Shown: piece after piece, positions 9,601 to 46,453 of the stretch
Layout of the letters: each line of letters opens with the position of its first letter
How positions within the stretch are numbered: the stretch's first letter is position 1
Source of the DNA: Balanoglossus misakiensis
Lineage: Eukaryota > Animalia > Hemichordata
Assembly (NCBI GenBank): GCA_040954595.2
Contig: JBECUI020000051.1
Location: 1-60,918, forward strand
DNA: 60,918 nt
Reading direction: 5' to 3'
Notes under the pieces: generated by a model
Seen by the model: only the letters and a program-made list of their open reading frames with translations
Databases searched by the model: none
What the model was told of the DNA's origin: nothing
Made by a program: the position numbers and the translations under genes

Positions 9601-12600
9601 TCATGTTATAGATGTCTATATTCTTGGGTGTTACTGTTACCGTTCCTTGCCACAGAAGTTCTCCTTCATATTCATCCGCATTCCTAGCCTCAATACGTGC
9701 TGCATAGCTCCCGGCATCAGCCGTTGGTAATACTTGAAGAACGCCGAGGTTGTTCACTTGAAACCCGGATACTTGCACGCCATTTTTTGTCGCATCTATG
9801 CTGTATATCAAGGAATCAGACGGACTTCCCGCACCAAGCGTTGGATGATATTCCTTCCCATCAGAGTAAATGGCAGGGCTGGTCGTATCATACGACAAGG
9901 TTCCGCCAATGTTGGGAAGGGTAACTGTTAGAGTAATGGTATCACTCTGAGTAGGATCAGCTGTCGAGGTTGCTGTTATGCTTGTTGTTCCCTTTGCTAC
10001 AGCCTGTACTAATCCATCATCGGCATTGACTGTTGCTACTGTTGGATCCACACTTTCCCACCTGACCGTTTCTGCAATGTTGCTTCCAATGACCGTGGCT
10101 GAAAGCGTTTGACTTGATCGCTTGAGCAAGGTGATGGGATCTTCTCCGTCTATTGTTACACTTGCTACCCCGTTACTATAGAATGTGCCGGTACTGCTCC
10201 AATTGCTTGTGTACAGCGTATTCCACTCGGCACGAACACGGAACTCATACTCTTCTCCCCCGTCCAAATTTCTTATCGTTTGGTACAGATTCGTTGTTGC
10301 TGCCATGGTTTCCCATGTAGTACTGCCATGTTTCCGGTAACTCACAATAAAGACTGATGAAACATCATTACCAGCACTATCCGTTCCTTGGCTTCCCTCA
10401 GTCCAAAATATACGAATCTCATTGATGGCCGTATATGTTGCATCCTTCTGTATATCAGTCGGACTCCCCGGATTAGTTGATTGATCGATGACTTCCTTTG
10501 TTGTAATGGTTTGAACAGAGCTCAGTGCAAAAGAATTCTCGGCCATTGCCTTGACAACAAGATAGTAGGAAGTTCCAATGCCTAAACCACTCATGGTTAT
10601 TGCCGGATTATCGCTTCCCGTTATCGCTTCTGTTCTCTTATTTCCTTCAACTGCTATTTCCTCACTTGTACCTATAGTAGTGGAAAGATAGACCTCATAT
10701 CCTGTTACCGCTTGTATTGCACCAGTCGCTGTCCGTCCAGGCGCTACTGCCGACCAGCTCATGCTTATCTCGGTTTGGGTTGTTGCGACCATTGGTGATA
10801 CTACCGTACCGACCTGTCGTACCAAAGACGGTGTTCTTACCACAAAAGTAGACTTGGGTCCTTCTAGCCCGTTGTTCGCACTCACTGCAAGACTGTAGGA
10901 GGCATCTCCTTTTAAGCCGGTGAGAGTATGGCTTGCGCCACTTACTTCAACGGGAACACCTGCAGTTTCTTCATGAAAGGTCTCGCCTTCATGCCAATAG
11001 AACCAATAAGTGCTAATTGTTGCAGCATTTCCACCTGTAATTGTTCCCGTGTCAACGGGTGCTGTCCACGAGATGGGGATACTGACGGTTGCACTACCAT
11101 CTGTTGCTTGCACCGTTTGGGCTTCGGCAGCAGTCAAGTCGGTTGGCATGCCCGGTTGTGTTGCTTCTTGTAGGGTAATGATAATGGTGGCTGTTTCTGT
11201 AAATGCGGGGTCTGCCACGGATGATGCGGTTATGGTTACCTCGCCTGCTCCCACTGCAGTTATCGTTGCCGTCCTATCCCCGTTATCTATAATACCTGCC
11301 AATTCAGGTTGGTCGTTCGTCCATCGAATGTCCTCTACAATGTTTTCACCACTGATGGTTGCTTCTAAAATCTGCTCTTCCTCGTTTTCCATGCTCTGAC
11401 GATAGGGAAGAATGATAATAGAAGTAACCCCGTTACTGAGAAATGATTGCGGTTCAGTCCAGGTGCTCGTTAAGGTCGGAACTGCCTTGTTTTTCGATTG
11501 TATTCGTATCTGGTAACTGACCACACTTTCCAATCCACTGAGAGTTATCTGTGGTAAGTCCGTTTCCTGCGAAATGGCGCTGTTCCATTCATCTTCTGTC
11601 GGTGCAGGATCGGCGGGAAGATAGGAAATAACATAACTGGTAGGTGCAAAATTTCCGCTTTCATCTAATCCCTGTCCTACCCGATCCCAGGCAATGGTAA
11701 GAGTTTTTATTTCTTTCTCGGTCATTACCTTCCTTATTGTCAACGGATCAACTGCATCCGGTGCGGCGCTACTAGCAGGGGTAGTTATTCCTTCCATTCT
11801 CCTGCTCAAACTTTCGCTACTAACGATTTCTCCGTCCATTGCTTCTGCTTTTATAACAATGAAGTAAGCAGTCTCCGGTTCCAATTCGGTTCCATTTGCT
11901 AGTTGCATTACTCGCAGTTCGTACGAGTCCTCGTTGCTCGGTTCTATTGTTTCGGTAAGATTTTCTTCTGCCACTACGGGTTGGTCGGTTGATACATAGA
12001 TACGATATCGTGTCGGGATCGTAATGCCTTGGTCATTTCTCCCCGCCGATACGGCTAACCAGCGCAGGATAATTTCTTTTGCCGCGAAGTCGGCAGTAAA
12101 GGTTACCATGCCTACATCTACCTTCTCTCGCACGAGGGTTGCTATCTGATATGCAGTTTCTATTGGAGTACTGAGCAGAGTACCTGATGCGTCTAACCAA
12201 GTGGTAATTACTACCTGATATGTTCTTCCCTCTTCAAGGGTGTCTGCCTTATACTGAATTATACCGTTTTGATTGACTACTTCTATCGCGGATACTTCTT
12301 TTACAATTTCATTTCCACTCTCATCGGTTAGCTTGATAATGTATTTATATACTGATTCTGCAGGTGCCTGCCATTGAAGAGTAATACTATCGGGTTGGCG
12401 TTCGAATGCCTGAATATTCGATACTCCTCCTCCCACTGCCCCTGTTTGTAGGTTCAGTACGGTACTTATGGCTGACATGGCATTACCGGCTTTTGCCTGT
12501 AGTTCTACCGAATACTCGACATTGCTAAGGAGTTCTGTGGTTATGGTATATCTAATTTCTGTTTCGGTGGAAACAATATTCGGATCATCTGCTGCGATAT

Positions 12601-12829
12601 CCTGTTCCCAAACAATATCATCACCAGATTTGAGAACAATTTTATATCCATCAGGACTTACCCCATCGGGAGCTCCCCAAGAGAGAAGAATGCTATTGTC
12701 AGCAATAAAAGATGCGGACAAATTTCGCACGGCATTAATTGGTGCCGTACCCCCAGTGCTCCCCCCACCACAAGATAAAAGCAAACCAACAATCAATATA
12801 GTTGTTGTAATCCATATACTTCTAAACAT
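3662..12829 (-). CDS. Giant (about 3055 aa) surface lipoprotein with FN3 and Ig-like (Big_2) repeats and a C-terminal right-handed beta-helix
   Basis: Likely start ATG 12829 behind AGGAGG. Signal peptide with lipobox LLSC-GGG. Many W..P...Y FN3 patterns, Big_2 patterns (WESVDPTVATVNADDGLVQAVAKGTTSITATS), repeated YNENSSPxLxNVxF beta-helix coils, terminal PDIGPYE. Confidence 0.85.
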   Translation of the reverse strand: MFRSIWITTTILIVGLLLSCGGGSTGGTAPINAVRNLSASFIADNSILLSWGAPDGVSPDGYKIVLKSGDDIVWEQDIAADDPNIVSTETEIRYTITTELLSNVEYSVELQAKAGNAMSAISTVLNLQTGAVGGGVSNIQAFERQPDSITLQWQAPAESVYKYIIKLTDESGNEIVKEVSAIEVVNQNGIIQYKADTLEEGRTYQVVITTWLDASGTLLSTPIETAYQIATLVREKVDVGMVTFTADFAAKEIILRWLAVSAGRNDQGITIPTRYRIYVSTDQPVVAEENLTETIEPSNEDSYELRVMQLANGTELEPETAYFIVIKAEAMDGEIVSSESLSRRMEGITTPASSAAPDAVDPLTIRKVMTEKEIKTLTIAWDRVGQGLDESGNFAPTSYVISYLPADPAPTEDEWNSAISQETDLPQITLSGLESVVSYQIRIQSKNKAVPTLTSTWTEPQSFLSNGVTSIIILPYRQSMENEEEQILEATISGENIVEDIRWTNDQPELAGIIDNGDRTATITAVGAGEVTITASSVADPAFTETATIIITLQEATQPGMPTDLTAAEAQTVQATDGSATVSIPISWTAPVDTGTITGGNAATISTYWFYWHEGETFHEETAGVPVEVSGASHTLTGLKGDASYSLAVSANNGLEGPKSTFVVRTPSLVRQVGTVVSPMVATTQTEISMSWSAVAPGRTATGAIQAVTGYEVYLSTTIGTSEEIAVEGNKRTEAITGSDNPAITMSGLGIGTSYYLVVKAMAENSFALSSVQTITTKEVIDQSTNPGSPTDIQKDATYTAINEIRIFWTEGSQGTDSAGNDVSSVFIVSYRKHGSTTWETMAATTNLYQTIRNLDGGEEYEFRVRAEWNTLYTSNWSSTGTFYSNGVASVTIDGEDPITLLKRSSQTLSATVIGSNIAETVRWESVDPTVATVNADDGLVQAVAKGTTSITATSTADPTQSDTITLTVTLPNIGGTLSYDTTSPAIYSDGKEYHPTLGAGSPSDSLIYSIDATKNGVQVSGFQVNNLGVLQVLPTADAGSYAARIEARNADEYEGELLWQGTVTVTPKNIDIYNMIYTLLSVRFNRTTDIPVNTNIPIPVEYRITDRAGNAPSADISIDDNGTIRVGSTVPEGSHELQVTATVPADNTNFRGQKIVDIEITVVAETITGSLSYTIDQMPQYGVEHRYNPVFGAGSPPTNELIFAVEVILGGANVTEGFLVTTEGILTVGNNVPAGSYTVIVTATHPTYSGNLRWQETLVIFPLDRSTAPSAPIFIESIATLSDVTLQWQVLTSGSDVNGNPAIITSYTIYVKNSTGAPPHLPPELIESNKLAEITTDLDNPHYTMPHPVYNGQTYLVTATNNVGLTSEASEPQTLYTTYTAAGINIYKESGNMEFGQLKINWSEPEYPGRNVFGEHVAARYTLHYSRGGGRTVNYGDVHTRPVTLTGLVAGAIYTIEVKSYNDPPTTISHGFDSYSTRKELRSNGIASFTLQADIPNAPDGGIDVTDGQFTMYEGSTQSFTALLQVDSAPDGVTWTVSPNDGRVTLNSNTDHTVIASANVQASALLTATAGDGTSKTITITVEPASTAPGAPTNLQNVQEEFIDDNGVLSVTLKLQWTAPIKSGAYEGSPSYDLNYVVYWADGSMEVSGTTHASIPNLRYNTNYTFTVRATNGILGAQSAPLTVQTPVYPTSEPVIVDQFYLSWPNANDIDISVRNHNPGGVDQYGLPYPFTLDAYYSTSLDSAYSITAADLVSSGTALTTIDTRTKRANMASYNGFFHFVFRSANNGGATTLGPVVKLEGPFPVLRLTKNAGSIAPYVDAESVRNAAQISFGNALQTEGESPSFQTGQPLTLLVYEMRYRTSDGGTVGPWSEIIRLSDSNVIDSLPWEGGIDYHVQMRVLAPDTSTPGIEITSVSQWLSVDPVFMGSKVSIDVPTNITMGENWERIITVNEVDDWLEHDFTQDGGATPLESSIQYSSSDENVAKITPIPGSNQGKIETFQAGHAELTISFHNNGNGTYQPIVTTKTINVEVRSDYVFSYSIPDRMEVMTGYVLSPTLAPTPPADIQYRLEPTNPDIIIDEHGVITIEDTLIAGDYLLNVYATGTNYYASSSVTVIIVPYDISPTRPTYYDEWQYAGNDDNGIRQEAYRSTGQTALTYSYRGIFLQGSTPEWRLAKIGDLTISLTPITVYPSDSITVSTDPSTWGDLHISAADLTPGIHEFFLTITGGGAYFSGSISSRYKFTKYRTPDQIGEKPVVAISGEQEFTLNWDATFDGYDLITDYEVAYSIDRATWNNISSTPDAQGISGTRSDRVMVVRGLTLGVQYSFSVAARNAAGVSVASPASNAIKASWVPKSDARVNVVSGSDSITVAFDPPSANHASIQHYKILYGTMQPPTTVFNPDENGYTILPPIGSDPNYPYNVVFTSEHIQQERIYYFSVLAVNMHGAGAPSTPMPGIMGTREFPAAATDLQFSNITYSGWTVSFSHSGRYGTNAFGNQAGFEQYRVEYGTSRENLTETRIITDVTTKQYTVDGLLQNTQYYLRVVVRNDDLLEVASAIMEVRTQPFRAYVLKSVVGESNGESWDTAFTNIQDGIDAAAAVGGGEVWVSGNHQVSTATGGSIQLRNNVQVYGGLERGAQTLEGRTESEIILVTAGHAFYNTDLDATAVLDGFEITGQQFQSVTPDKGAGMYNLNASPTIRNVLFYTLAARYRGAGMYNENSSPLLENVDFEANILRGNAGGEYENRKGVAIYNENSSPILRNVQFKHSRDYTFGVMYNKDSSPVLENVLFWSNTGYEVSAMYNENSNPILIDTVFTVNNVDTTTGFSPASRSAIYNENSSPIFINILITGTRSEDFFVFNAQDSFSTIINGLLLEEDADRPNAAGKYLIYNTDSSGVSLVNSVFLQRPLFHGSGMFGGVFQYTHSYLTEIYNSEGTISGIDLGNNVTLMPTFQFGNSNWDLSAFMARGLDDVWKTADDGYHPASDSSLVDQGLYIAIAADYSTIYYSADQLIWYTDVANPETSTTVLPADAIERKSITGNAIQGMPDIGPYEQQY

Positions 12830-13070
12830 ACATCCTCCTGTCATTAGAAAAAACCAAAATACAAGATATATTATAATACAAAAAGGAAAAAAAACAAGCA
12901 AAATAATAATGTTTTTGTTTTTATCTCAGTAAACTGCTGCAAAGATATAAATACAAATGAAATATAAATAAAATTATAAATCACACTTTCCAGAGGGGCA
13001 TCCTGCTTTTTTTATTATCTTTTCCGTGCAGAACCTCATTCATATATATATAAATTTTTGTATATAACTC

Positions 13071-31904: not shown

Positions 31905-33086
31905 TTATCCGTGGTCGACATACAATACGTTCGCAAGTATCAGAAACACTGCCCCAATCACCTTACGTCGCGGATCTGACGCCGCATTCACCACTGATAT
32001 GTCGGATATCGGTTGGCAGGCCTCTACTACCCTCATGTAAATCAAATCAAAAAAAGATTTTTCAAGAAAACTTTCGCCAAATAAGATAATTTTTTTGCTG
32101 TCAATAATCTTTTCTACAATTGATATGGCTATGCTAATACACTTCGCAGTGTGTTCCATTACTTCGTACAGTCGAAGATCTTTGTCTGCATGCCTAAATA
32201 CAGTGTGTGCCTTGAGCGTTTCTATTGAAGTATGCCCTTCAAATAAATAGGGAAACTCCTGCTTGTAATTGGGAATGGCTTGTATCAAATTTCTTAATGT
32301 TTCTTCTGATGTTAAGGCTTCTAAACAATTGAGTTTTCCGCATACTTTGCAAGATATCTGATAATCCGAATGATATGGCAGTTCTATATGACTTATCTCA
32401 CCGGCTACTCCGTGTTCGCCCTTAAATATTTTTCCATGAACCCAGAATGCCATGCCTATTCTTGGTGCATATTTTACACATATAAAATTATCGTTAAACT
32501 GATTGAGCATGTATTCGGCATAGGCAAGACTATGTACATTGTTGCCTTTTAAGACGTGGATGTTGTACTTTGTTTCAAAATATGTTTGTGTGTATGTGCT
32601 CAAGGAATCTAAAACCTGCCATTCTTTGGTTAGTCCTGATATTTTTATTTCGCTACCCGGCATGGTAAGCCCTACACCCAAAATTTGTGACGGAACTATA
32701 TTGGCTTCTTGTATGCCTTCCTGAAAAATACGAGAAATGTTTTCTTTCCAAAAACTTTCCATGTTTTTTAGATCCATGCTTTTTGTTAGATGAAATTCGC
32801 ATTCACCTAAGCAGTTCGCTATAGCAAATTCTATATGATCAATTTCAAAGGCAACAGCAACTACATAGCCAAACCCTTTGTTAATGCCTAATACAACCTT
32901 ATTCCTGCCGACAGAACGAGAAAGAATATTTCCCTCTTGCCTAACTATGCCCAACTGTATCAGTTTGCTTGAATACTGAGAGACCGCGGCTCTTGTCAGT
33001 CCTAATGAACTTGCTATATCACGTTGAGATATGTCTGACCTCTTAAAGATTTCATATAAGATTTTCTTCTCTGTATTATTAAACAT
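31905..33086 (-). CDS. ROK-family transcriptional repressor
   Basis: N-terminal wHTH (SQRDIASSLGLTRAAVS...GR), GEISH and CxxCGxxNCLE zinc motif. Confidence 0.9.
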   Translation of the reverse strand: MFNNTEKKILYEIFKRSDISQRDIASSLGLTRAAVSQYSSKLIQLGIVRQEGNILSRSVGRNKVVLGINKGFGYVVAVAFEIDHIEFAIANCLGECEFHLTKSMDLKNMESFWKENISRIFQEGIQEANIVPSQILGVGLTMPGSEIKISGLTKEWQVLDSLSTYTQTYFETKYNIHVLKGNNVHSLAYAEYMLNQFNDNFICVKYAPRIGMAFWVHGKIFKGEHGVAGEISHIELPYHSDYQISCKVCGKLNCLEALTSEETLRNLIQAIPNYKQEFPYLFEGHTSIETLKAHTVFRHADKDLRLYEVMEHTAKCISIAISIVEKIIDSKKIILFGESFLEKSFFDLIYMRVVEACQPISDISVVNAASDPRRKVIGAVFLILANVLYVDHG

Positions 33087-33237: not shown

Positions 33238-33876
33238 TTATAGTATAATTTCTATATTCTCACCATGTAATAACACTTCTGCACCTTGCTCGATAAGCCA
33301 ATCTGCATCTCGATGAGCAAGCATCCATTTGTCCCGCCTAAAAAGATATCCCGGGGTGATATGTTCCGAACACATATCATTTGTTCCACGTGGCAATATA
33401 ATAACACTCTTAAATCCATGTTTGCTCACACTGCAGGGGGCAAAATGTAATACACGTGGGTACAATTCGACAGCACTCTCGCGTTGTACATAAAAAGATG
33501 CCAAATCCGATGTCTTATAACTATGATCTGAGGCAATATATTTCGGCAAACCAAGAAGAAGAACCAGATCAGTAACTGCAAAAATCACTTCTGCACTTTT
33601 ATGATATTCCAAGGCGTTCAGGCTGTTTCTCCATCCATTGCAAACACCGGCTTGGATATTAACATCGCCAAATGTATGTTGCTTAATAAAATGATATTCC
33701 TTCGTTTCTTCCAAAGAAGGCATAGAGGCTATGTACTCATTTCCATCTTTTGGTAGAGACATAGCACCAACTATGTCAAGTGATCTATGTATATCAACTC
33801 CTGTGATAATAGTCCCATACTCATTAAAGGATCTGTCTGTAATCAAAGGAATATCTGTCGTATTAATTTGTCTCAT
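33238..33876 (-). CDS. DUF4867 protein (SftX/SqvB-like, associated with sulfoglycolysis)
   Basis: F.EYG, G.CNG...LNALEYHKSAEV, ELY...LHFAPC, ILPRGTN, KW.LAH, GENI. Confidence 0.82.
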   Translation of the reverse strand: MRQINTTDIPLITDRSFNEYGTIITGVDIHRSLDIVGAMSLPKDGNEYIASMPSLEETKEYHFIKQHTFGDVNIQAGVCNGWRNSLNALEYHKSAEVIFAVTDLVLLLGLPKYIASDHSYKTSDLASFYVQRESAVELYPRVLHFAPCSVSKHGFKSVIILPRGTNDMCSEHITPGYLFRRDKWMLAHRDADWLIEQGAEVLLHGENIEIIL

Positions 33877-33906: not shown

Positions 33907-34770
33907 CTATTGTCCTGCTTTTTCAACAACATTGTACGTTGCAGAAAAATCTTCTTTCCCGATCCCCTCGTCCATTGCCTTATCGTATATGGATAAGATA
34001 TGCTTGACGACAGGAAGATTGAGCCCAAGGTTAGACACAAATTCGTCGGCAAGATGAACATCTTTGTGCATATTCTCTACTGAAAAAGCCGTAGTGAAAT
34101 TTTTATTTTTTATTGCGAGCCCCTTTGCATCGAGGTAGAAGTTTTGTCCGCCGCCGTAGGATATCGCCGGCATAAAATCTTCAATATCTATGCCCGCTTT
34201 TTGTGCAAGTAGGATCATTTCGTTCACGCCGTTTTGTATTTGTGCAACAAGCATATTATGTATCAATTTCATAATAAGCCCTTGTCCGTTCCCTCCCAGA
34301 TGAATGATATTGTTTCCTATACAAAGCAATAGATCTCTTACTTTTTCGTATGTTGCTTTATCTCCGCCTACATAGATACCAAGCGTACCTTCTAGCGCTG
34401 CAGCCTTGCTTTTTACAACAGGCGCATCGAGCATAACTGCCCCTTGGGCGGCTATCTTTTTTGCTATCTGACGAGAAACCTTCGGCGAGATGGTACTCAT
34501 ATCTACAAATATCTGACCACTTTGTACACTATCTATAAAGCCTTCGTATACAGATTGTACATGTTCGCTCTTGGGCAACATACTAAAAATAACATCACTT
34601 TTTTGTACGACATCAGCAGCAGACGTACCAGCCTCTGCCCCCTTTGATACAATCAAATCTACTTGAGCTGTATTCACATCAAATACAATCACAGCGCAAC
34701 CTGATTTCCTTAAAAGATTTTCACTCATGGACTCGCCCATGATTCCAATTCCAATAAAGCCTATTTTCAT
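33907..34770 (-). CDS. beta-hydroxyacid dehydrogenase family; probable sulfolactaldehyde reductase
   Basis: IGFIGIGIMG, DMSTISP, DAPVVKS, catalytic K in MKLIHN; adjacent to the SF transaldolase gene. Confidence 0.78.
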   Translation of the reverse strand: MKIGFIGIGIMGESMSENLLRKSGCAVIVFDVNTAQVDLIVSKGAEAGTSAADVVQKSDVIFSMLPKSEHVQSVYEGFIDSVQSGQIFVDMSTISPKVSRQIAKKIAAQGAVMLDAPVVKSKAAALEGTLGIYVGGDKATYEKVRDLLLCIGNNIIHLGGNGQGLIMKLIHNMLVAQIQNGVNEMILLAQKAGIDIEDFMPAISYGGGQNFYLDAKGLAIKNKNFTTAFSVENMHKDVHLADEFVSNLGLNLPVVKHILSIYDKAMDEGIGKEDFSATYNVVEKAGQ

Positions 34771-34779
34771 ACTATTCTC

Positions 34780-35460
34780 CTATTCTTTTGTGTTGTCCCA
34801 CGCATTCTGAAATTTCTTCAACCCATAGTCGGTAAACGGATGATACATGCTATCCAGATACACAGAAAGCCCACATGTTACGATGTCCAGACCTAAACTT
34901 GCTGCTTCTGCAATTTGCTTTCCGTTTCTAATCGCTGCTGTTATTACTTCTGTTTTTGATAAAGTACTATAGTTGTCTAAGACCTGTCGAATAGTAGAAA
35001 GATAGTCTATGCAGTCTTCTCCGCTATTCTCCTTCCAAGCAACAAATGGCGATACAAACGATGCCTTTACTCGTGCCGCGGCTAATGCTTGTGATGGTGA
35101 AAACACCAATGTAACGTTCGTTCTGATTCCCTTTTCTTCTAGTTTCCTTGCTGCAATAATTCCCTCTACTGTACAAGGCACTTTTATCACGAAGTATTCT
35201 GATATCTTTGCAATATCCTCTGCTGCCGCGAGCATATGCTCAGATTTCTCCAAATGAGGATCAATTTCGATAGAGATTGGGAATACATCCGGACTGCCCG
35301 CGTTCTTCTTTGCCCATGCAGATAACTCTGAGACTACTTCTTTGTTTGAATGCCCACTATTCATTACATGGTTCGGGTTCGTTGTTACCCCATCTATTCC
35401 AAATGAGTAAAATGCTTCATCAACTTCATTGAGTTTTGCACTGTCTAAAAAATATTTCAT
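34780..35460 (-). CDS. Probable 6-deoxy-6-sulfofructose transaldolase (SftT/SqvA-like)
   Basis: MKYFLDSA, IDGVTTNP.H.MNSG, FPIS.EI.PHL, VIKVPCT, TNVTLVFSPSQAL, SPFVAWKENSG (W where ordinary transaldolases have GR), AIRNGKQI, FTDYGL.KF.NAWDNT. All match my recollection of Bacillus SF transaldolase. Confidence 0.85.
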   Translation of the reverse strand: MKYFLDSAKLNEVDEAFYSFGIDGVTTNPNHVMNSGHSNKEVVSELSAWAKKNAGSPDVFPISIEIDPHLEKSEHMLAAAEDIAKISEYFVIKVPCTVEGIIAARKLEEKGIRTNVTLVFSPSQALAAARVKASFVSPFVAWKENSGEDCIDYLSTIRQVLDNYSTLSKTEVITAAIRNGKQIAEAASLGLDIVTCGLSVYLDSMYHPFTDYGLKKFQNAWDNTKE

Positions 35461-35477: not shown

Positions 35478-35494
35478 TTAATTAATTTACTTAA
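35478..35494. promoter_or_regulatory. Candidate ROK operator, copy 1 (TTAATTAATTTACTTAA)
   Basis: Imperfect palindrome identical to 41385-41401, lying between the -10 box and the RBS of the transaldolase gene. Confidence 0.7.
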
Positions 35495-35508: not shown

Positions 35509-35538
35509 ATTCTACCACGTGATTTCTTTTTTTGTCAA
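35509..35538 (-). promoter_or_regulatory. Internal sigma70-type promoter for transaldolase-reductase-DUF4867
   Basis: Minus strand TTGACA (35538-35533), 18 bp spacer, TAGAAT (35514-35509) with TG extension. Confidence 0.68.
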
Positions 35539-36302
35539 GATAAAATCAAGGATCGGTAGAGCAATATACTATGAGCAATGAGCAGGCGGAATCCTATTAT
35601 TATCAAGAATACATAAACTATTTTGTGATAGTCTATTTTTGTATTGAGTGATAACTCGAAGGCCTTGAGTCCAAGAATTGTTCCTATGATAAATCCCGGC
35701 AATGCCCATAGTATATTTATTCCAAGCGCTGCGGTGAAAAATCCGTTTATCCAAAATCCTATTAATGCGCCTATCATCTGAATCATGAAAAACATTGATA
35801 GTGTCGCCTTCGTTCTCTGTGGAGACCATGCCTTGCTTGATAGAAATGCAATAACAGGTGGTCCGGGTTCTCCTACTGATGCACCTAATGATCCTGATAA
35901 GAATCCTGCGATAGAATTTTTCAATAAGGACGATTCTTCTTCGTTGTTATATGTATCCGGTTTTTTTTGCAATAGAAAATATATGCCCGAAACAACTAAT
36001 ATCGCTCCCATCGCAATAAGAATAATATCCTTGTCTAATACTTTTAGCAGCCATGCACCTAAAAACGTTCCGGGTAAAGCCCCTATTACTAAAAATATAA
36101 CATCCTTCTTCACCACGTGTTTGTACATTTTGAACACTATGGGAAATGTTACGAGCCAGCCATATATCCCCGCAAGTGGTACGCTTACTTGAGGAGCGAC
36201 AAATAGCGAGAGGGTCGATACCGATACGAGTGCCAAGCCAAACCCTGTAAATCCTTGTACAAAGGAGGCAAAGAAGAGTATTATGGAGAACAAAAATTCC
36301 AT
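35535..36302 (-). CDS. TauE/SafE-family sulfonate exporter
   Basis: FVQGFTGFGLALV, ALPGTFLGA, GEPGPPV; about 8 TM segments. Confidence 0.87.
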   Translation of the reverse strand: MEFLFSIILFFASFVQGFTGFGLALVSVSTLSLFVAPQVSVPLAGIYGWLVTFPIVFKMYKHVVKKDVIFLVIGALPGTFLGAWLLKVLDKDIILIAMGAILVVSGIYFLLQKKPDTYNNEEESSLLKNSIAGFLSGSLGASVGEPGPPVIAFLSSKAWSPQRTKATLSMFFMIQMIGALIGFWINGFFTAALGINILWALPGFIIGTILGLKAFELSLNTKIDYHKIVYVFLIIIGFRLLIAHSILLYRSLILS

Positions 36303-36305
36303 ATG

Positions 36306-37067
36306 CTATGTAGTTATCTTTGTACTTGTACCCTTCATAAAATCCTTGTTTTTATCTCCCACCCAGTATCGATTGCCTGCAATACACCAAATAAAACATA
36401 AGGGTTCCTCATGGCTAAATACGGGATGATAATTAAGAAGTGGTATGGTTATATGGTCACCTACTTCGACGGATGTTACAAAACTCAGCTTCTCGTCGTT
36501 TTCATATACTTGCATAGCTCCACTTCCTTCGATAAAACTGTAGCATTCTTCCTGGTCTGTATGATTGTGTGGTGGCCATGCCCTTGTTTTAGATTCGTAA
36601 AAGGTGTATCCCGCCATAAACTTGTTTGCTTTTTCAGAAACGTCAAACATAAGATAGACCTTTTTTTTGTGCAATAGCCGCAATCGTTCCTTATCTGCGT
36701 TTATTTTTTTCCACTTTGAATGGAAGACTGGGTGTTTTTCATTCCCTATCGCTCTGTATACATACAAATGACCTATATTTTTTTTGTCTTTGTGTTCTAC
36801 ATAAAATTCTGTATCTATGGGAATATACAATGTATCGCGTGATTCCAATATATATTTTTTCCCTTCTACAACACAATCTACTTTTGATCCTAAATTGAAA
36901 ATTAACACCTCTTCTTTTTTGTATCCCAATGTCATGGATCTTGTCTGATCAATTCTCAATTCGGCTAAACTAAGAAATTCTAAGTGAGAGTTAGATTGAT
37001 TAAATATTTCAATAAGCTCACACTCGGCACTTTCTACATTAAATTTTTTCCCATCCTTTAACTTCAT
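36306..37067 (-). CDS. IolB/KduI-family bicupin isomerase (candidate SQ isomerase)
   Basis: RDTLYIP, metal motif WPPHNH..QEE.Y, GD...IP..YHP, W.IAG. Confidence 0.72.
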   Translation of the reverse strand: MKLKDGKKFNVESAECELIEIFNQSNSHLEFLSLAELRIDQTRSMTLGYKKEEVLIFNLGSKVDCVVEGKKYILESRDTLYIPIDTEFYVEHKDKKNIGHLYVYRAIGNEKHPVFHSKWKKINADKERLRLLHKKKVYLMFDVSEKANKFMAGYTFYESKTRAWPPHNHTDQEECYSFIEGSGAMQVYENDEKLSFVTSVEVGDHITIPLLNYHPVFSHEEPLCFIWCIAGNRYWVGDKNKDFMKGTSTKITT

Positions 37068-37083: not shown

Positions 37084-38208
37084 TTATAATTCTATTACTT
37101 TTTTTGTTTTGATCGATTCTTCTGCTGCTAGTCCAATAAGTACTGCTTTTATACCGTCATCTATACCAACTTCGACCCTTCCTTTACCTTGTATAACTTC
37201 ATTGAATTTTTTATGTTGATGAAAAGTCGAACCATGATGGTCCCCAGCGCTCTGTAGACTGCTATCTATTTCTATGTCTTTGCTTATGGGACCTTTCGGG
37301 TTTCGTGGACTTACAACAAGTTGAGACTTTCTATGTTCTCCCACAAAGCCTGTAGAATGTCCTATTTCCGACAAATCGTTTACCGCCCATATCCGATCTG
37401 GCCCCGGTACCTTGCATTCTATTTTCCCCTTGTCTCCCAACACAGTAATTTCTTCTTGAAAATATGAACCATCACAAAACATACAGAGATCCAAGGAAGC
37501 TCGTTTTCCAGACTTAAAATCCACTATTACATAGGCATTATCTATAATATCAGGGATCTTGCCTTCGTATCTTTCGTCCAGAAAATTTAGGTCTGCAGCC
37601 CCCGAGGCATATACACGCACTGCCTCATCTGCGGCAAGGAGCCTCATCAAATCAAAAAAATGACAACATTTTTCAACAAGAGTGCCGCCTGTGTTTCTGT
37701 TAAACCGGTTCCAGTTGCCTACTTTTGTAAGGAAAGGAAATCTATGTTCTCTTATAGAAATCATCTTGCTGTTTCCAACAATCCCTTTCTGTACTTGCTC
37801 TATCATCTCAGACACAGCTTGCATGTATCGGTATTCCATTGCTACCCATATCGATGATTTGTAAGAGGCTGCTTGTTCTAAAATTTCATCGCATGCTTCT
37901 CGACTCGTACAGAGTGGCTTTTCTACTAAAACAGGTCGGCTGTCTGTCTTGAAAATATCTCGTAAAATGTCTACATGCGTATAGTTGGGTGATGCAATAA
38001 CAAATGCATCTATATTACTGTCTTTTAATAACTCGGTGTGGCTATCGTATGCTGTTGCATTCTTTAATAGTTCGAGAGAAAGTCCTTGTTGTTCTTTATC
38101 AGGATCGGATATTGCAACTACTTCTGTATTTTCTAGTAAAAGAATATTTTGAATGTGCTCTCGTCCCATCATGCCAGAACCTATTATTCCATATTTTATA
38201 TTTTGCAT
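37084..38208 (-). CDS. Gfo/Idh/MocA protein; probable NAD+-dependent sulfoquinovosidase (GH188/SqgA-type)
   Basis: Start MQNIKYG at 38208. GIIGSGMMGREH, VEKP, MEYRY, REHRFPFLTKVGNWNRF..NTGGTLVEKCCHFFDL, LCMF, HHGST. Confidence 0.8.
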   Translation of the reverse strand: MQNIKYGIIGSGMMGREHIQNILLLENTEVVAISDPDKEQQGLSLELLKNATAYDSHTELLKDSNIDAFVIASPNYTHVDILRDIFKTDSRPVLVEKPLCTSREACDEILEQAASYKSSIWVAMEYRYMQAVSEMIEQVQKGIVGNSKMISIREHRFPFLTKVGNWNRFNRNTGGTLVEKCCHFFDLMRLLAADEAVRVYASGAADLNFLDERYEGKIPDIIDNAYVIVDFKSGKRASLDLCMFCDGSYFQEEITVLGDKGKIECKVPGPDRIWAVNDLSEIGHSTGFVGEHRKSQLVVSPRNPKGPISKDIEIDSSLQSAGDHHGSTFHQHKKFNEVIQGKGRVEVGIDDGIKAVLIGLAAEESIKTKKVIEL

Positions 38209-38237: not shown

Positions 38238-39524
38238 TTACATCATGCCTAATAGTGTTGGAAATCCAGTTACCAATACAGGGAAGAATGAAATAATAAA
38301 GACAATTGCAACTTCTACTAAAATAAACGGCAGTGCTTCCCATGCTATTTTTTCTAAAGAAATGCCGGATAGTTTCGAGGCTACAAACAAAACCAATCCC
38401 ATAGGTGGAGTCGCTAATCCTATTGTTACGTTAACACTCATTACGACACCAAAATGTACTGGATCTACGCCCAGATCTATAAGTGGGGCTGCTAGTATTG
38501 GTGCAAATATTAAAATTGCAGGACCTGCATCTAAAAACATGCCTATGATAAGCAAAATTACATTTATTATCGCAAATAATAAATAGGGGTTTTGTGTTAT
38601 TCCATAGAGAAACCTGTTCATATAATTGGATATCTCCGTAAGGCTTACCAAACTTCCCAATCCAGATGCTACCCCTATCAGTAACAATACGCTTGCTGAG
38701 CTGATCATGGAGTCTTTTATAACTGCCCAAAGTTCTTTAAATGAAAGCGATCTATATACAAATAGTGCTATGATCGCAGCATATCCCGCGGCAATCGCTG
38801 CGGCTTCAGTTGGCGTAAATATACCACCGTATATGCCGCCAAGTATGATTACCGGAGACAAAAGTGCAAAAAAAGCTTTCTTAAAACTGCCTACTCGTTC
38901 TTTTCTTGTTGCCTTCTCGGTTGTAAATAAATAGCCTTTTTTTAGACAAAGAACATAGTTCATTGCCATAAGGAATACACAAAATAAAATACCGGGTATG
39001 ATAGCAGCTATAAACATGGTACCAACAGAAATATTCATTGCAAAGGCATAGATAATCATAATGCCACTGGGGGGAATTATCGGACCAAGCACTGTGGCTG
39101 CTGATGTAATGGCTGCTGCATAAGAGGTCGAGTATCCTTCTTCCTTCATCTTGGGAATAAGCATACTTCCAATGGCAGATGTGGCTGCAACAGCGGACCC
39201 TGTAAGTGCAGAATATATTGTGGAAGATAGTACCACAACATGCCCTAATCCTCCTTTTTTATGTCCTATGAGAGACTTACAAAAATCTATAATTCTTGTA
39301 GTTATGCCCCCTTTTCCCATAATGTTTCCCGCCAAAATAAAAAACGGAAGTGCTAACAAAGTAAAGCTTTGTAATCCTGCAAGAAACTTATTTATGAACA
39401 ATGCTATAAATTGTTCTGCACCCGACATTTCTATTCCTATAACCCCCGAAAGGAGCAAAGAAAAAAGAACGGGTAATCCTGTAAACATGAGACCAATCAA
39501 GAAAACAAGGATAAATGACGTCAT
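38238..39524 (-). CDS. dctM: TRAP transporter large permease DctM
   Basis: LLALPFFILAG, GSAVA, PIIPPS, GIFTPTEAA, GLATPPMG. Confidence 0.93.
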   Translation of the reverse strand: MTSFILVFLIGLMFTGLPVLFSLLLSGVIGIEMSGAEQFIALFINKFLAGLQSFTLLALPFFILAGNIMGKGGITTRIIDFCKSLIGHKKGGLGHVVVLSSTIYSALTGSAVAATSAIGSMLIPKMKEEGYSTSYAAAITSAATVLGPIIPPSGIMIIYAFAMNISVGTMFIAAIIPGILFCVFLMAMNYVLCLKKGYLFTTEKATRKERVGSFKKAFFALLSPVIILGGIYGGIFTPTEAAAIAAGYAAIIALFVYRSLSFKELWAVIKDSMISSASVLLLIGVASGLGSLVSLTEISNYMNRFLYGITQNPYLLFAIINVILLIIGMFLDAGPAILIFAPILAAPLIDLGVDPVHFGVVMSVNVTIGLATPPMGLVLFVASKLSGISLEKIAWEALPFILVEVAIVFIISFFPVLVTGFPTLLGMM

Positions 39525-40104
39525 AGCGATCCCTCACCACTTTCTACATCTACTACTTCTTCTCGAAATTCCTCATTGAGAGTTTTTTTATCGCCCCTTA
39601 TCGCAGCTAATATATCTTGTATTATATGTTGTACTGTTATAGTAAACATAAAGATAAATGAAATCGGTGCTACCATGTACAGTTGACCTTTGCTTATGGG
39701 CATCTGCACGTTGGAAACGCTCATGCTTTTGAGAGATATATCAATGAGGCCTGGAATTATTCTGTATAAACTGAAAAGCATCATCGAATATAATAATAAG
39801 TTTAATATTAGTTTAGGATAAATGCCTGTTATTTTATCGTATATTAATGTCATGCTGATGTTAAGTTTGTCTAACATCAAAGCGGGGTCCCAACAAGAAT
39901 GTCATAATGAACATTGCAGAAACACAATATTCTTCTACCCAAGCAATAGGATTTTTGAAAAAATAACGCATCGTTCTGTATCAAGACAAACAGAGTCATA
40001 GAACTCATAAAGAGCATGCCAAGACTGGCAAAGACCACGCTTATAAAGCGATGGATCTTATCGACATAATATATAATGGTATCTACCAGGCCTTTTTTTT
40101 TCAC
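39521..40104 (-). CDS. dctQ: TRAP transporter small permease DctQ (frameshifted in this sequence)
   Basis: Fragments 39877-40104 and 39521-39880 are hydrophobic and lie between dctP and dctM. Confidence 0.75.
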
Positions 40105-40117
40105 ATCACTACCCCAT

Positions 40118-40150
40118 AAAAAAGTTCCCTGACTATGAAGTAAGGGAACT
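40118..40150 (-). terminator. Intrinsic terminator-like hairpin after dctP
   Basis: Minus strand AGTTCCCT-TACTTCATAGTC-AGGGAACT followed by a T-run. Confidence 0.65.
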
Positions 40151-40164
40151 CTGTGTGATAAAAA

Positions 40165-41304
40165 CTATTCTAATTCCCGTGCTTGTATCTGATCTAAAAT
40201 TACTTGTTGTTTTGATATTTCTTCTTTGTAACGATCGAGCCATGCCAATGTTTCGGGCGATGAGTTTTCTGCAAACCAATCTTCAACAACTTTTGCCCTT
40301 TCTTGAAATTCTGCTAATTCTGCTTTGCTTGGGCTATACACTGTTCCACCTGCTTGTTTAAAGGTTTCAAATGAACTTGCTTCTGCGTACTTGTTGTATT
40401 CTCTGATAAACCAGCTCATCGCATCGAACCCGTCTACAAATACCCTCTGTAAGTTTTCAGGCATGGATTCAAATTTTTCATTGTTTACCCACCAAAATCC
40501 AGACATATACGCATGACCATCTAATACTATGTACTTCAAGCTTTCATGTAGTTTTGCATTGACAATGTCCACCATTCCGTTTTTACTTCCGTCAACAACG
40601 CCTGTCGATAGTGAGGTGTACACTTCACCCCATGAAATACCTGTTGGTGATGCACCTACGGCACTTACTAGCTGTTGTTGCACTTTAGACGGTACTGTTC
40701 GTATTTTAGTCCTGCAAGATCGTCTACTGTTTTAATTTGCTTTTTTGTTGTAGCAAAATTTCTCCATCGACCACTGTTCGTTACGATCATCAATCGTGCG
40801 TTTTCTGTGGCTTCTAGGGCTCCTTGTCTGAGTCCGCTTACAAATTCCGGAGAGGAGTGTACCATTTCTACAAGTCGATCATCGGTTACTAGGTACGGAA
40901 GATCAAAAATCGATATTGGCTCCCAGTATACACTTGCATCGCCTGTTGTGTTTACGATGTCAAAACTTTGTTGAATAATACCGTCCATATTCTCACTGAC
41001 CGATGAAGCCAACTGTGCATTCGGATATATCTTCACAGCAAGGCGTCCATTAGATTTGCTTCAACATAGTTCTTTAGCAAAACAAGTCCTTTTGCTTGTA
41101 ATCGTCGAGATTACCATTATGTGAAGCAATAAAAATAAATTCTGCACCCTCCGGTACTGCAGAGTAGTCGTACGATGCCTCTTTTGGTACTACCTCACCA
41201 CTAGCAGCTGCATCGCTTGTGGCTTGGTTTGTACTTTCTATACCGCAACCTAGAAAACTTAACAATAGAAAGCTTAATAGCATTATTAAACATACTTTTT
41301 TCAT
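40165..41304 (-). CDS. dctP: TRAP transporter substrate-binding lipoprotein DctP (two frameshifts in this sequence)
   Basis: Fragments 41074-41304 (lipobox FLGC), 40668-41036 (IYPNAQL, FDLPYL, RNF) and 40165-40683 (GASPT.I.WGEVYTSL.TGVVDG). Confidence 0.85.
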
Positions 41305-41384: not shown

Positions 41385-41401
41385 TTAATTAATTTACTTA
41401 A
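41385..41401. promoter_or_regulatory. Candidate ROK operator, copy 2 (TTAATTAATTTACTTAA)
   Basis: Identical to 35478-35494 and just downstream of the predicted -10 box. Confidence 0.7.
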
Positions 41402-41414
41402 CGTATATGCTATA

Positions 41415-41444
41415 ATTTTACTACATCTTATTTTTTCTTGTCAA
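41415..41444 (-). promoter_or_regulatory. Sigma70-type promoter of the island operon
   Basis: Minus strand TTGACA (41444-41439), 18 bp spacer, TAAAAT (41420-41415). Confidence 0.68.
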
Positions 41445-41537: not shown

Positions 41538-42408
41538 TCACCGCCCATAATGCCGTATTATTCTCTCTACGCTCGAACTGTATTGTCCACCGAACAGGTT
41601 GAGGTGATTCAAAAGATGATAAAGGTTATAGACATCCCTGCGATGCTCGTACCCAGGTGGGAGTGGATATTCTTTTGCATAGGAATGATAAAAATCAGGC
41701 GAAAATCCCGAAAACAGCTCAGTCATAGCAAGATCAGTTTCCCGGTTGCCATAATACACTGCCGGATCAATAAGAACCGGAGCACCTTGGCCATCAACCA
41801 TGTAGTTTCCACCCCATAGATCTCCATGCAGCAAAACCGCCGGTTCATCGCTAAGAATATCTTCGAGGCGACGAAGAAGACTACGAAATAAGCGTTCAAT
41901 CTCTTTGCCACCAAGTAGCCCCTGTTCCATCGCCCATGAAAACTGATATTCAAGCCGATGCTTCGCAAAAAATTCATGCCAACTATTTGCATATGTATTT
42001 CGCTGCCGAGCAGAGCCGAGATAATTATCATGAAAGAAGCCATAGGTATCGGTTTCACTCTGCTTATGCAGCTTCGCCAGTTCTCTGCCGAAACGGGAAA
42101 AAATGCCGCATCTTTCTTACCGCTCTCTATGTATTCGCAGAGAAGAAACTGGTATTCACCGGATACCCCATAGGCATACACAGCCGGTACCCGAATAACT
42201 CCGCTTTCTGCTAACTTTTTCAGCCCCATTGCTTCGCAAGCAAAGAGATCGCGGATAGAAGCCTTGTTGCTTTCAAAAAATACTGCCGATTACGAACTCT
42301 TATCCGAAAGCATTCATTGATGCACCCACCACCGCAGGGCAATAACTCATCTACAGAAGAATCCTTGCCTATGTTTTCTTGTAAAAAAGCACGTAATTCA
42401 TCATGCAC
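41538..42408 (-). CDS. Fructosamine/ribulosamine kinase family protein (frameshifted)
   Basis: Fragments give GGGCIN, IRVP, LLHGDLWGGN, IDPAVYYGNRETDLAMTELF, YNLYHLLNHLNLFG. Confidence 0.88.
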
Positions 42409-44987: not shown

Positions 44988-46453
44988 ATGCAGTTTAACT
45001 TTTCCAGTAAAAGATTTAATACCGAAGTGGTAACATTAGCAAACACAGAAGAACGACTCGTGCCCGGTGGAATGCATCTATTAGACCAAGTCCATAAGGC
45101 ATTTGAACCGATTAAACAAATCGGCATTATCGGCTGGGGCTCTCAGGGTCCGGCACAAGCACAGAATCTTCGCGACAGCCTAAAAGGCAGTAAGACAAAG
45201 GTATGTGTTGGATTACGCGAAGGATCATCTTCGCAAAAAAGTGCCGAATCCGCAGGATTTACAGTTGCAAACGGCACCTTGGGCAATATGGAAGATGTCA
45301 TACGAACAAGCGATCTCGTATTGTTACTGATATCCGATGCGGCACAGGCACAGTTATACCAGTCGATATTCTCAATGATGAAGCCAGGTGCTACTCTTGG
45401 TCTCTCTCATGGGTTCTTGCTCGGATACCTGAACAGCATTCACAAACGCTTCCCCGATACGATAAACATTATCGGTGTATGTCCCAAAGCATGGGTCCTT
45501 CCGTTCGACGACTCTACGAACAAGGCAAGAGTACAAAAGGGGCGGGAATTAATACAAGTTTTGCCATAGAGCAGGATATTGATGGACATGCAACGGACTA
45601 CGCCATAGCATGGTCGATTGCCTTAGGTGCCCCCTTTAGTTTTATGACCAGTCTTGAAATGGAATACCGATCAGATATTTTCGGCGAACGAGGCATTTTG
45701 CTTGGTGCCGTGCACGGTATCGTTGAATGTTTGTACCGATGGTTCCGCTATCAGGGCATGGATAATAAACAGGCATTTATTGAAAGCGTCGAATCGGTTA
45801 CCGGTCCCATATCGCATACAATTTCATCAGCAGGAATCCATGCTGTATATCAAAACCTATCGGATTCAAACAAGAAATTGTTTGAATTGGCATACAATAC
45901 CGCCTATCTTCCCTGCAAGGAAATACTTGATGAAATATACAATGAGGTAAAAAGCGGAAATGAAATTCGTTCAGTAGTTATGGCGGACAGCCGATTGCAA
46001 AACTACCCGATAAACACCATTGATGACACTGAAATGTGGAGAACAGGTCGAACTGTCCGGGAGAATCGTAAGCCTGCCCCCGTTAATCCCTATACTGCAG
46101 GAATATATATTGCCTGCATGATGGCTCAAATCGACTTACTGAAGGAAGAGGGGCATAGTTACTCCGAAATTGTCAATGAATCAGTTATTGAAGCAGTAGA
46201 TTCGTTAAATCCCTACATGCATTTCAAAGGAGTCAGCTACATGGTTGATAACTGCTCCACCACTGCACGTTTGGGTGCACGAAAATGGGCACCACGATTC
46301 GATTATATTATCAATCAATGTACCATTCCTGCTATTGAGGAAAAGAAAGCAAAAAATACAGAATATATGCAGCGCTTCTTATCGCACCCGGTGCATGAGG
46401 TCTTGCATACATTATCGCAATACCGTCCAAGTGTCGATATAGCTGTCGTATAA
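44988..46453 (+). CDS. ilvC: Ketol-acid reductoisomerase, long plant-like type (frameshift near 45490)
   Basis: IGWGSQGPAQAQNLRDSL, LISDAAQ, LSHGF, VCPK/MGPSVRRLY, EYRSDIFGERGILLG, NESVIEAVDSL, DNCSTTARLG. Confidence 0.92.

Follow-up and report, generated by a model that had tools for sequence, protein, structure and literature searches.

A KduI/IolB-related bicupin as a probable sulfoquinovose isomerase in a sulfo-TAL-type gene cluster

The gene cluster and its cupin

The 60.9-kb window (the whole stretch of DNA analysed here) carries a minus-strand gene cluster in the order dctP-dctQ-dctM, GH188, cupin, tauE, transaldolase, reductase, DUF4867 and ROK. A TRAP transporter heads the series, with the solute-binding protein DctP (40165..41304, (-); frameshifted here and intact in loci L001 and L002, where L denotes a locus and G a genome throughout), the small permease DctQ (39521..39971, (-); in two frames through a frameshift, 5' end not fixed) and the large permease DctM (38238..39524, (-); domain match). 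Frames are split across dctP and dctQ (39521-41304) and in two genes further upstream that we take to be a fructosamine-kinase gene and an ilvC-like gene (41538-42229 and 44988-46453); since dctP and dctQ are whole in L001, the splits are probably assembly indels. Elsewhere in the window, an ORF of 3079 aa occupies 3662-12901 (-).

Immediately upstream of the cupin lies a Gfo/Idh/MocA gene at 37084..38208 (-) (probable start 38208; the listed ORF runs to 38343), whose best PDB matches are 8qc3 (E = 9e-117) and 8qc2 (E = 1e-113), the next family following at 7e-23. Both entries are labelled simply 'oxidoreductase', and we take them to be SqgA structures. The protein keeps the spacing of the R/L/K sulfonate triad and the catalytic residues given in the accessible text of PMC10755693; judged by sequence, it is a GH188 NAD+-dependent sulfoquinovosidase (SQase) of the SqgA type. 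On the other side of the cupin, a domain match identifies a TauE/SafE sulfonate exporter, SftE-like (35535..36302, (-)), followed by an ortholog of the sulfofructose (SF) transaldolase SqvA/SftT (34780..35460, (-)), recognised by a structure-database match to the B. megaterium SF transaldolase 8bc3 (E = 6e-76, against 2e-40 or worse for ordinary transaldolases). An Asn occupies the position of BmSqvA Arg30, which at first cast doubt on the substrate of this transaldolase; the doubt was set aside, as the same Asn is present in 34 of 80 SqvA loci. The next gene encodes a reductase of the 3-hydroxyisobutyrate-dehydrogenase family (33907..34770, (-)), probably an SftR-like sulfolactaldehyde (SLA) reductase, with homologs in 45 of the 80 SqvA loci. 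DUF4867 (SqvB/SftX; 33238..33876, (-)) is the second cupin-fold protein of the cluster and is, in the accessible part of PMC11968277, a proposed ring-opener or mutarotase and not an isomerase, and a ROK-family repressor (31905..33086, (-); domain match) completes the series.

Set against the cluster definition in the portions of PMC11968277 and PMC9594981 available, the sulfo-TAL (sulfo-SFT) set of SF transaldolase, SQase, SLA reductase, exporter and DUF4867 is complete in the window. The missing member is SqvD/SftI, of which none was found in the 60.9-kb window or in the close relatives G001 and G002, and by gene content the cluster is of the sulfo-TAL type, SqvD/SftI excepted. The earlier note had described a cluster with no other isomerase, which agrees with a tblastn search of the whole window with YihS and SqvD queries (no match at E<=1e-3). 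All cluster genes besides the cupin have an assigned role, in a window without SqvD or YihS. An unlinked SqvD or YihS may lie outside the window, but neither was found in the closest relatives, G001 and G002.

The cupin itself, a KduI/IolB-like bicupin and our proposed sulfoquinovose (SQ) isomerase, is encoded at 36306..37067 (-) by an unbroken ORF with a product of 253 aa. Only 16 nt separate the end of the GH188 gene (37084) from the cupin ATG, so that the placement directly after a sulfoquinovosidase gene, as first noticed, holds. Equally sound is the intact metal motif claimed for it: motif 1, PPHNHTDQEE (36546-36575, (-); residues 165-174), supplies the predicted ligands H167, H169 and E174, and motif 2, YHP (36423-36431, (-); residues 213-215), the predicted fourth ligand H214. 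All four residues are invariant in 71/71 aligned homologs, and their aligned counterparts in KduI are the metal ligands H198, H200, E205 and H248, which predicts a 3His-1Glu metal site.

KduI and IolB are metal-dependent aldose-ketose isomerases acting on anionic six-carbon sugars, and one alternative reading is that the gene encodes a conventional uronate isomerase of the KduI or IolB type that lies in this cluster incidentally. The Pfam KduI/IolB model PF04962 scores above its gathering threshold (46.1 bits vs a cut-off of 23.9), and homologs are labelled 5-deoxy-glucuronate isomerase in databases. However, the curated equivalog models fall far below their cut-offs (36.4 vs 250 bits for KduI, NF002091; 32.9 vs 205 bits for IolB, TIGR04378), and the family branches separately from IolB and KduI, as a distinct clade (SH-aLRT 100 in a quick tree of 46 rows). 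Residues T194, R203, M262 and Y269 of KduI are not kept, G001 and G002 have separate strong PF04962 genes elsewhere in the genome, no iol or kduD cluster surrounds the window cupin, and upstream sites are shared with SQ operons (see below). We consider this reading most improbable. The family is also discrete, with full-length members above 200 bits and the next full-length cupins below 100 bits, and it comprises 1,213 proteins at E<=1e-5. No match to the SqvD/SftI (PF02952/NF048012) or YihS (PF07221) families was obtained for the cupin. In terms of sequence relationships, it is a distinct KduI/IolB-related family, neither KduI nor IolB. An AlphaFold2 model built from the 71-sequence alignment (mean pLDDT 96) has a two-barrel fold. 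Structural comparison (Foldseek, VIA-align) ranks KduI and an IolB-like protein as its top matches; VIA-align gives Z 23.7 and an rmsd of 3.1 A (225 aligned residues) for IolB-like 2qjv and Z 21.9 for KduI 9kcz, with bicupins of unrelated chemistry scoring almost equally (Z about 21).

Occurrence of the cupin and of the known SQ isomerases

A genome scan returned 54 cupin loci, from which L054 (a partial match of 39 residues) and L046 (same genome as L041) were dropped. With the addition of G429, whose cupin the PF04962 genome search had missed, showing that the gene search can miss genes, the set amounts to 53 genomes, of which 19 are spirochaetes and 34 belong to Acidobacteriota, Lentisphaerae or Planctomycetota. 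Most are incomplete MAGs and two are apparently single-contig. Neither the cupin nor any match at the SqvA level was found on plasmids. In L001 and L002, where the cupins are 78-79% identical to that of the window, the window cluster is repeated. Other surroundings differ. The cupin of G012 is the first gene of a sulfo-TK-variant operon that also encodes a split transketolase, RpiB, an acylating sulfoacetaldehyde dehydrogenase and a CoA ligase; in G429 (one 3.87-Mb contig), it directly follows a GH31 YihQ within a sulfo-TK-type cluster; two Lentisphaerae loci combine it with transketolase, RpiB, TauE and Fe-ADH; and 14 spirochaete copies are unlinked, which initially spoke against a role in the SQ pathway.

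An SQase is present in all 19 spirochaete cupin genomes, as a YihQ-type GH31 above the NCBIfam cut-off in 17 and as a GH188 enzyme (66-67% identity) in G001 and G002. The YihQ background in the phylum sample is 108/401 genomes (Fisher p = 4e-8 vs cupin genomes, although genomes are not independent). An SF-processing cluster was found in 17/19 (15 sulfo-TK, 2 sulfo-TAL), with no SqvD within the fetched stretches, while none of either type was recovered from G008 and G013. The cupin is therefore found with either cleavage route, by transaldolase or by transketolase, and with either type of glycosidase, GH188 or GH31, and the only chemical step common to these settings is SQ to SF. The variety of glycosidases also bears on the idea that the cupin serves oxidoreductive glycoside cleavage (by GH188, or by Gfo/Idh/MocA with AP_endonuc_2), where it might, for instance, tautomerise or hydrate a 3-keto-sulfosugar intermediate. 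Its gene does adjoin that of GH188 in the window, and in most Acidobacteriota and PVC loci its neighbours are Gfo and AP_endonuc_2 genes. Yet the YihQ of the 17 spirochaete genomes is hydrolytic, G076 combines SqvA and SqvD with a GH188-like gene but lacks the cupin, and purified SqgA cleaves SQ glycosides unaided according to the accessible sections of PMC10755693, making such a role very unlikely.

Detecting the known isomerases required some care. PF02952 matched 37/50 genomes and is too broad to mark SqvD, so the SftI model NF048012 and a tree were used; a PF07221 search missed YihS in the E. coli control, so E. coli YihS itself served as the query. Searched in this way, none of the 53 cupin genomes yielded an SqvD-clade or YihS protein. 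With NF048012, 9 of the 19 spirochaete cupin genomes lack a match at E<=1e-8 and the remaining 10 score <=111 bits, vs a benchmark of 149-236 bits for 22 SqvD genes lying <12 kb from YihQ in cupin-free spirochaetes (hand-counted from coordinates). A quick tree places the best SftI matches of 17 cupin genomes, out of 34 that have such a match, outside both SqvD clades. The E. coli YihS query yielded, at best, E = 2e-10 at 26% identity across the 53 genomes. The single contig of G429 gave no SftI, YihS, AGE or PF01261 match. Separately, the close relatives G001 and G002 have an unassigned AGE-family gene (G001:C1:148144-149157; L345, L368), downstream of a mevalonate-pathway cluster and without detectable YihS similarity.

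The reverse search points in the same direction. The cupin was found in 0/80 SqvA metagenome loci, whereas SqvD occurs in 44/80, and in 17 of the 20 well-flanked ones. The remaining 3/20 carry neither SqvD nor cupin, so that holes are not rare; in these loci (L098, L130 and L151, with >=5 kb on either side), the isomerase may be unlinked or of a further type. Among 401 Spirochaetota genomes, the cupin occurs in 3, an SftI-like match in 45 and both in none, a result with little power by itself because, with only 3 cupin genomes in the sample, zero overlap is expected by chance in about 70% of cases. The SqvD rate of 16/19 YihQ regions is biased, as these regions were chosen mostly for nearby SftI matches. 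On a tree of the SF-transketolase N-subunit (18 cupin, 11 SqvD and 10 unlabelled rows; L377 left out because its transketolase was not retrieved), the cupin/SqvD state switches at least 4 times and two starred clades each contain both states; the exclusion is thus not the accident of one lineage. Closely matched natural counterparts are spirochaete sulfo-TAL clusters (L376, L381 and L382) that combine TRAP, SqvA, reductase, TauE and GH31 with SqvD, and the GH188-like case of G076.

The earlier note had called for profiling of this kind, and had staked its proposal on whether orthologous clusters hold the cupin together with a canonical SQ isomerase. These were examined and the proposal survived: neither known isomerase was found in the 53 cupin genomes, nor the cupin in the 80 SqvA loci or the 45 SftI-hit spirochaete genomes. 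Two genomes combine the cupin with an SftI-like protein, scoring 262 bits in G040 and 140 bits in G030, but no SQ genes are recognisable in the clusters concerned; the 262-bit protein of G040 groups with proteins adjoining true IolB genes. SqvD is itself diverse: L379:4819-6243 (G259) encodes a divergent SqvD-like protein of 474 aa, about 25% identical to others, in a sulfo-TK cluster that otherwise resembles those of cupin genomes and has the same operator. A divergent FucI-like paralog could therefore escape detection. As cupin relatives occur in genomes where neither known SQ isomerase was found, the cupin likely fills the isomerase hole, as the note had it, by non-orthologous replacement.

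Alternatively, the cupin might belong to the SQ regulon in an accessory capacity, as a ring-opener or mutarotase or as an epimerase feeding sulforhamnose or sulfofucose, with SF made by an unlinked, unrecognised or promiscuous isomerase. Cupins catalyse many reactions, and DUF4867 is itself a cupin of putative activity that was not found in 13/19 spirochaete cupin genomes, where the cupin could replace it. Furthermore, many cupin genomes hold divergent FucI-like paralogs, AGE-family or xylose-isomerase-like genes, and the FucI-like and AGE paralogs could be promiscuous SQ isomerases. However, the cupin stands beside DUF4867 in the window, G001, G002 and G429, and beside an aldose 1-epimerase in Bryobacteraceae loci; an accessory role leaves the absence of SqvD wherever the cupin occurs unexplained; and the single-contig genome G429 gave no match in the SftI, YihS, AGE and PF01261 searches. 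We regard an accessory role as unlikely, and isomerisation of SQ as the better reading of the distribution.

Three other proteins were considered as the isomerase. RpiB/SqwI was rejected, since the transaldolase clusters lack it and it occurs alongside SqvD. Two more do not qualify as general candidates: AP_endonuc_2 is absent from spirochaete clusters and was not found in G429, and a NagB-like protein gave weak matches only in G001, G002 and G017 and none in G009. The last, a NagB/6-phosphogluconolactonase-like protein of ~280 aa, recurs in SQ-type clusters (L168:14209-15054; L272, L398, L402, L417), often beside an amidohydrolase and a Gfo protein.

Upstream sites and occurrence outside the spirochaetes

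Regulatory sequences offer a further line of evidence where the cupin is unlinked. Scored with a matrix trained on 14 sites that precede transketolase or binding-protein genes, the palindrome of the sulfo-TK operons, lying upstream of the cupin, is the top site of the locus in 12 of the 14 unlinked loci (17.7-23.1 bits); it ranks second in L168, and L003 and L004 have none. Across five whole genomes, the pattern has 2-7 matches each (0-5 for a reversed-pattern control), which in 5/5 include the TK operon and the cupin gene and in G017 are these two alone. The consensus was drawn by eye from cluster and cupin sites, making the test partly circular, although the genome-wide rarity is unaffected. 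We infer that the cupin is co-regulated with the sulfo-TK operons. A DUF362 iron-sulfur protein adjoins the ROK regulator in 9 spirochaete sulfo-TK loci (L258-L266, L270).

In the window, L001-L004, L012 and L013, nothing scores strongly with the sulfo-TK matrix. The window instead contains a 17-bp site in two identical copies, at 41385..41401 (-), downstream of an 11/12 sigma-70 promoter match (41415-41444) and ahead of dctP, and at 35478..35494 (-), after another 11/12 match (35509-35538) and upstream of the transaldolase. Each copy lies about 14 bp past one of the two best promoter matches of the cluster, the count of 2 compares with 0.04 expected by chance, and a 3-mismatch form precedes the GH188 gene in L001 and L002. 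The site is probably the ROK operator, with the 41385 copy serving a unit from dctP through the SQase and cupin to tauE; its positions before dctP and before the transaldolase place the cupin in the transporter-glycosidase unit.

Outside the spirochaetes, the tie of the cupin to SQ is weaker. No YihQ above the cut-off and no close GH188 was found in the 34 genomes, linked transaldolases are only 35-39% identical to that of the window, and the connection depends on TauE, transketolase/RpiB or a transaldolase paralog, with 12 loci having no transaldolase, transketolase or aldehyde dehydrogenase nearby. In Bryobacteraceae (L023, L024, L032, L036, L039, L045, L050 and others), the cupin lies with Gfo/Idh/MocA, AP_endonuc_2, an aldehyde dehydrogenase, a LarA-type racemase, aldose 1-epimerase, MFS, a TonB receptor and a transaldolase paralog; a transaldolase >=57% identical to the L023 enzyme is present in 18/34 non-spirochaete cupin genomes. 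These clusters may represent a new sulfo-TAL variant in which the glycoside is cleaved stepwise and a sulfolactate racemase takes part, and no tie of their aldehyde dehydrogenase to a known SLA dehydrogenase was found. A Planctomycetota operon (L034:6450-13985, and L049) comprises cupin, SSF transporter, Gfo, DUF1080, AP_endonuc_2, transaldolase and TauE, in genomes where no GH31 or GH188 SQase was found. We tentatively suggest, at somewhat less than even chances, that the family was recruited independently as a third class of SQ isomerase and marks unrecognised sulfoglycolysis in Acidobacteriota, Lentisphaerae and Planctomycetota, where its partners would be a multi-enzyme Gfo/AP_endonuc_2(/DUF1080) sulfoquinovosidase and either a transketolase or a transaldolase other than SqvA. 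If so, current pathway screens overlook both the entry enzyme and the isomerase in these phyla.

Proposed reaction, significance and comparison with known enzymes

From the observed genes, fold, conserved residues, co-occurrence and shared upstream sites, we infer metal binding, substrate, reaction and co-regulation, and conclude that the cupin probably isomerises SQ to SF in a metal-dependent manner, as an enzyme unrelated to either YihS or SqvD. The TRAP system would import an SQ glycoside, from which GH188 would release SQ, possibly with ring opening assisted by DUF4867. Open-chain SQ would then bind, through O1 and O2, a divalent metal held by H167, H169, E174 and H214, its C6 sulfonate sitting in a pocket of K135 and T155 (KduI R163 and T184) with R128, R130, R162 and R233, and the cupin would move the carbonyl from C1 to C2 by an enediolate or a hydride shift. 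Both routes have precedent among cupin sugar isomerases. SqvA would cleave SF to sulfolactaldehyde and fructose-6-phosphate, the reductase would convert sulfolactaldehyde to DHPS, and TauE would export it.

The proposed sulfonate pocket has a parallel in KduI crystals, in which, as described in the accessible text of PMC10792219, sulfonate oxygens of MES, MOPS and HEPES hydrogen-bond R163, T184 and the T194 backbone. The corresponding cupin residues in the alignment are K135, T155 and A163. Invariant among the 71 homologs are K135, T155, the cleft residues Y176, F225 and W227, and the family-specific R128, R130, R162 and R233. The same source, as far as accessible, names nine KduI residues needed for activity (R163, I165, T184, T194, H200, R203, Y207, M262 and Y269), of which, by sequence alignment, three are identical in the cupin (T155, H169, Y176), two similar (K135, V137) and four different (A163, Q172, I229, V236).

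Isomerisation of SQ to SF is the entry step common to the sulfo-EMP, -TAL and -TK routes, and SQ production is put at about 10 billion tons per year in the available text of PMC12890257. Reviews of 2022 and 2026 (PMC9594981, PMC12890257), in the parts accessible, name just YihS and SqvD for this step, the accessible portions of PMC13436972 and PMC11659671 add no further SQ isomerase, and 'cupin' in those of PMC11968277 means DUF4867. Our search of the openly accessible literature returned no paper proposing a cupin/KduI/IolB-type SQ isomerase. What is new here is thus, with good probability, a non-homologous enzyme family for a known pathway step. If true, a third unrelated SQ isomerase represents a clean case of convergent recruitment, and a family now labelled 5-deoxy-glucuronate isomerase gains a function. 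Genome surveys demand an SQ isomerase match within 10 ORFs to call a pathway (PMC13372026), so cupin clusters would be missed, which our assignment, if true, corrects.

Compared with the known isomerases, SqvD/SftI (FucI family, PF02952, NF048012) has an unrelated fold and is longer (about 440 vs 253 aa), and it and the cupin were not found together in the genomes searched. YihS (AGE family, PF07221) shares the proposed reaction but is of an unrelated family, is metal-independent and belongs to the sulfo-EMP pathway (PMC9594981, accessible part). SqvB/SftX (DUF4867) is, like the cupin, a metal-binding cupin of sulfoglycolysis clusters (PMC11968277, accessible part), yet it belongs to PF16161, is a separate gene in the window cluster and joins SqvD in canonical clusters. 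Among cupins, the IolB-like 2qjv is the best fold match and has the PPH and YHP motifs in common; unlike IolB, however, the cupin (18-19% identity) lacks the insertion between the His pair and the Glu and has no inositol genes nearby. KduI differs by a structural identity of 14-16%, by R163 being a Lys and T194, R203, M262 and Y269 being changed, by the extra invariant R128, R130, R162 and R233 and family-specific C-terminal motif of the cupin, and by a pectin/GAG rather than SQ context. What the two have in common is the bicupin fold (TM about 0.67-0.69), the compact H-x-H-x4-E and distal H site, T184, Y207, F258 and W260, a basic residue at the R163 position and, as proposed for the cupin, aldose-ketose chemistry on an anionic C6 sugar. 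Isomerisation of intact glucuronate to fructuronate, which is proposed and not shown for E. coli KduI in the accessible text of PMC3578941, would be the carboxylate analogue of the conversion of SQ to SF.
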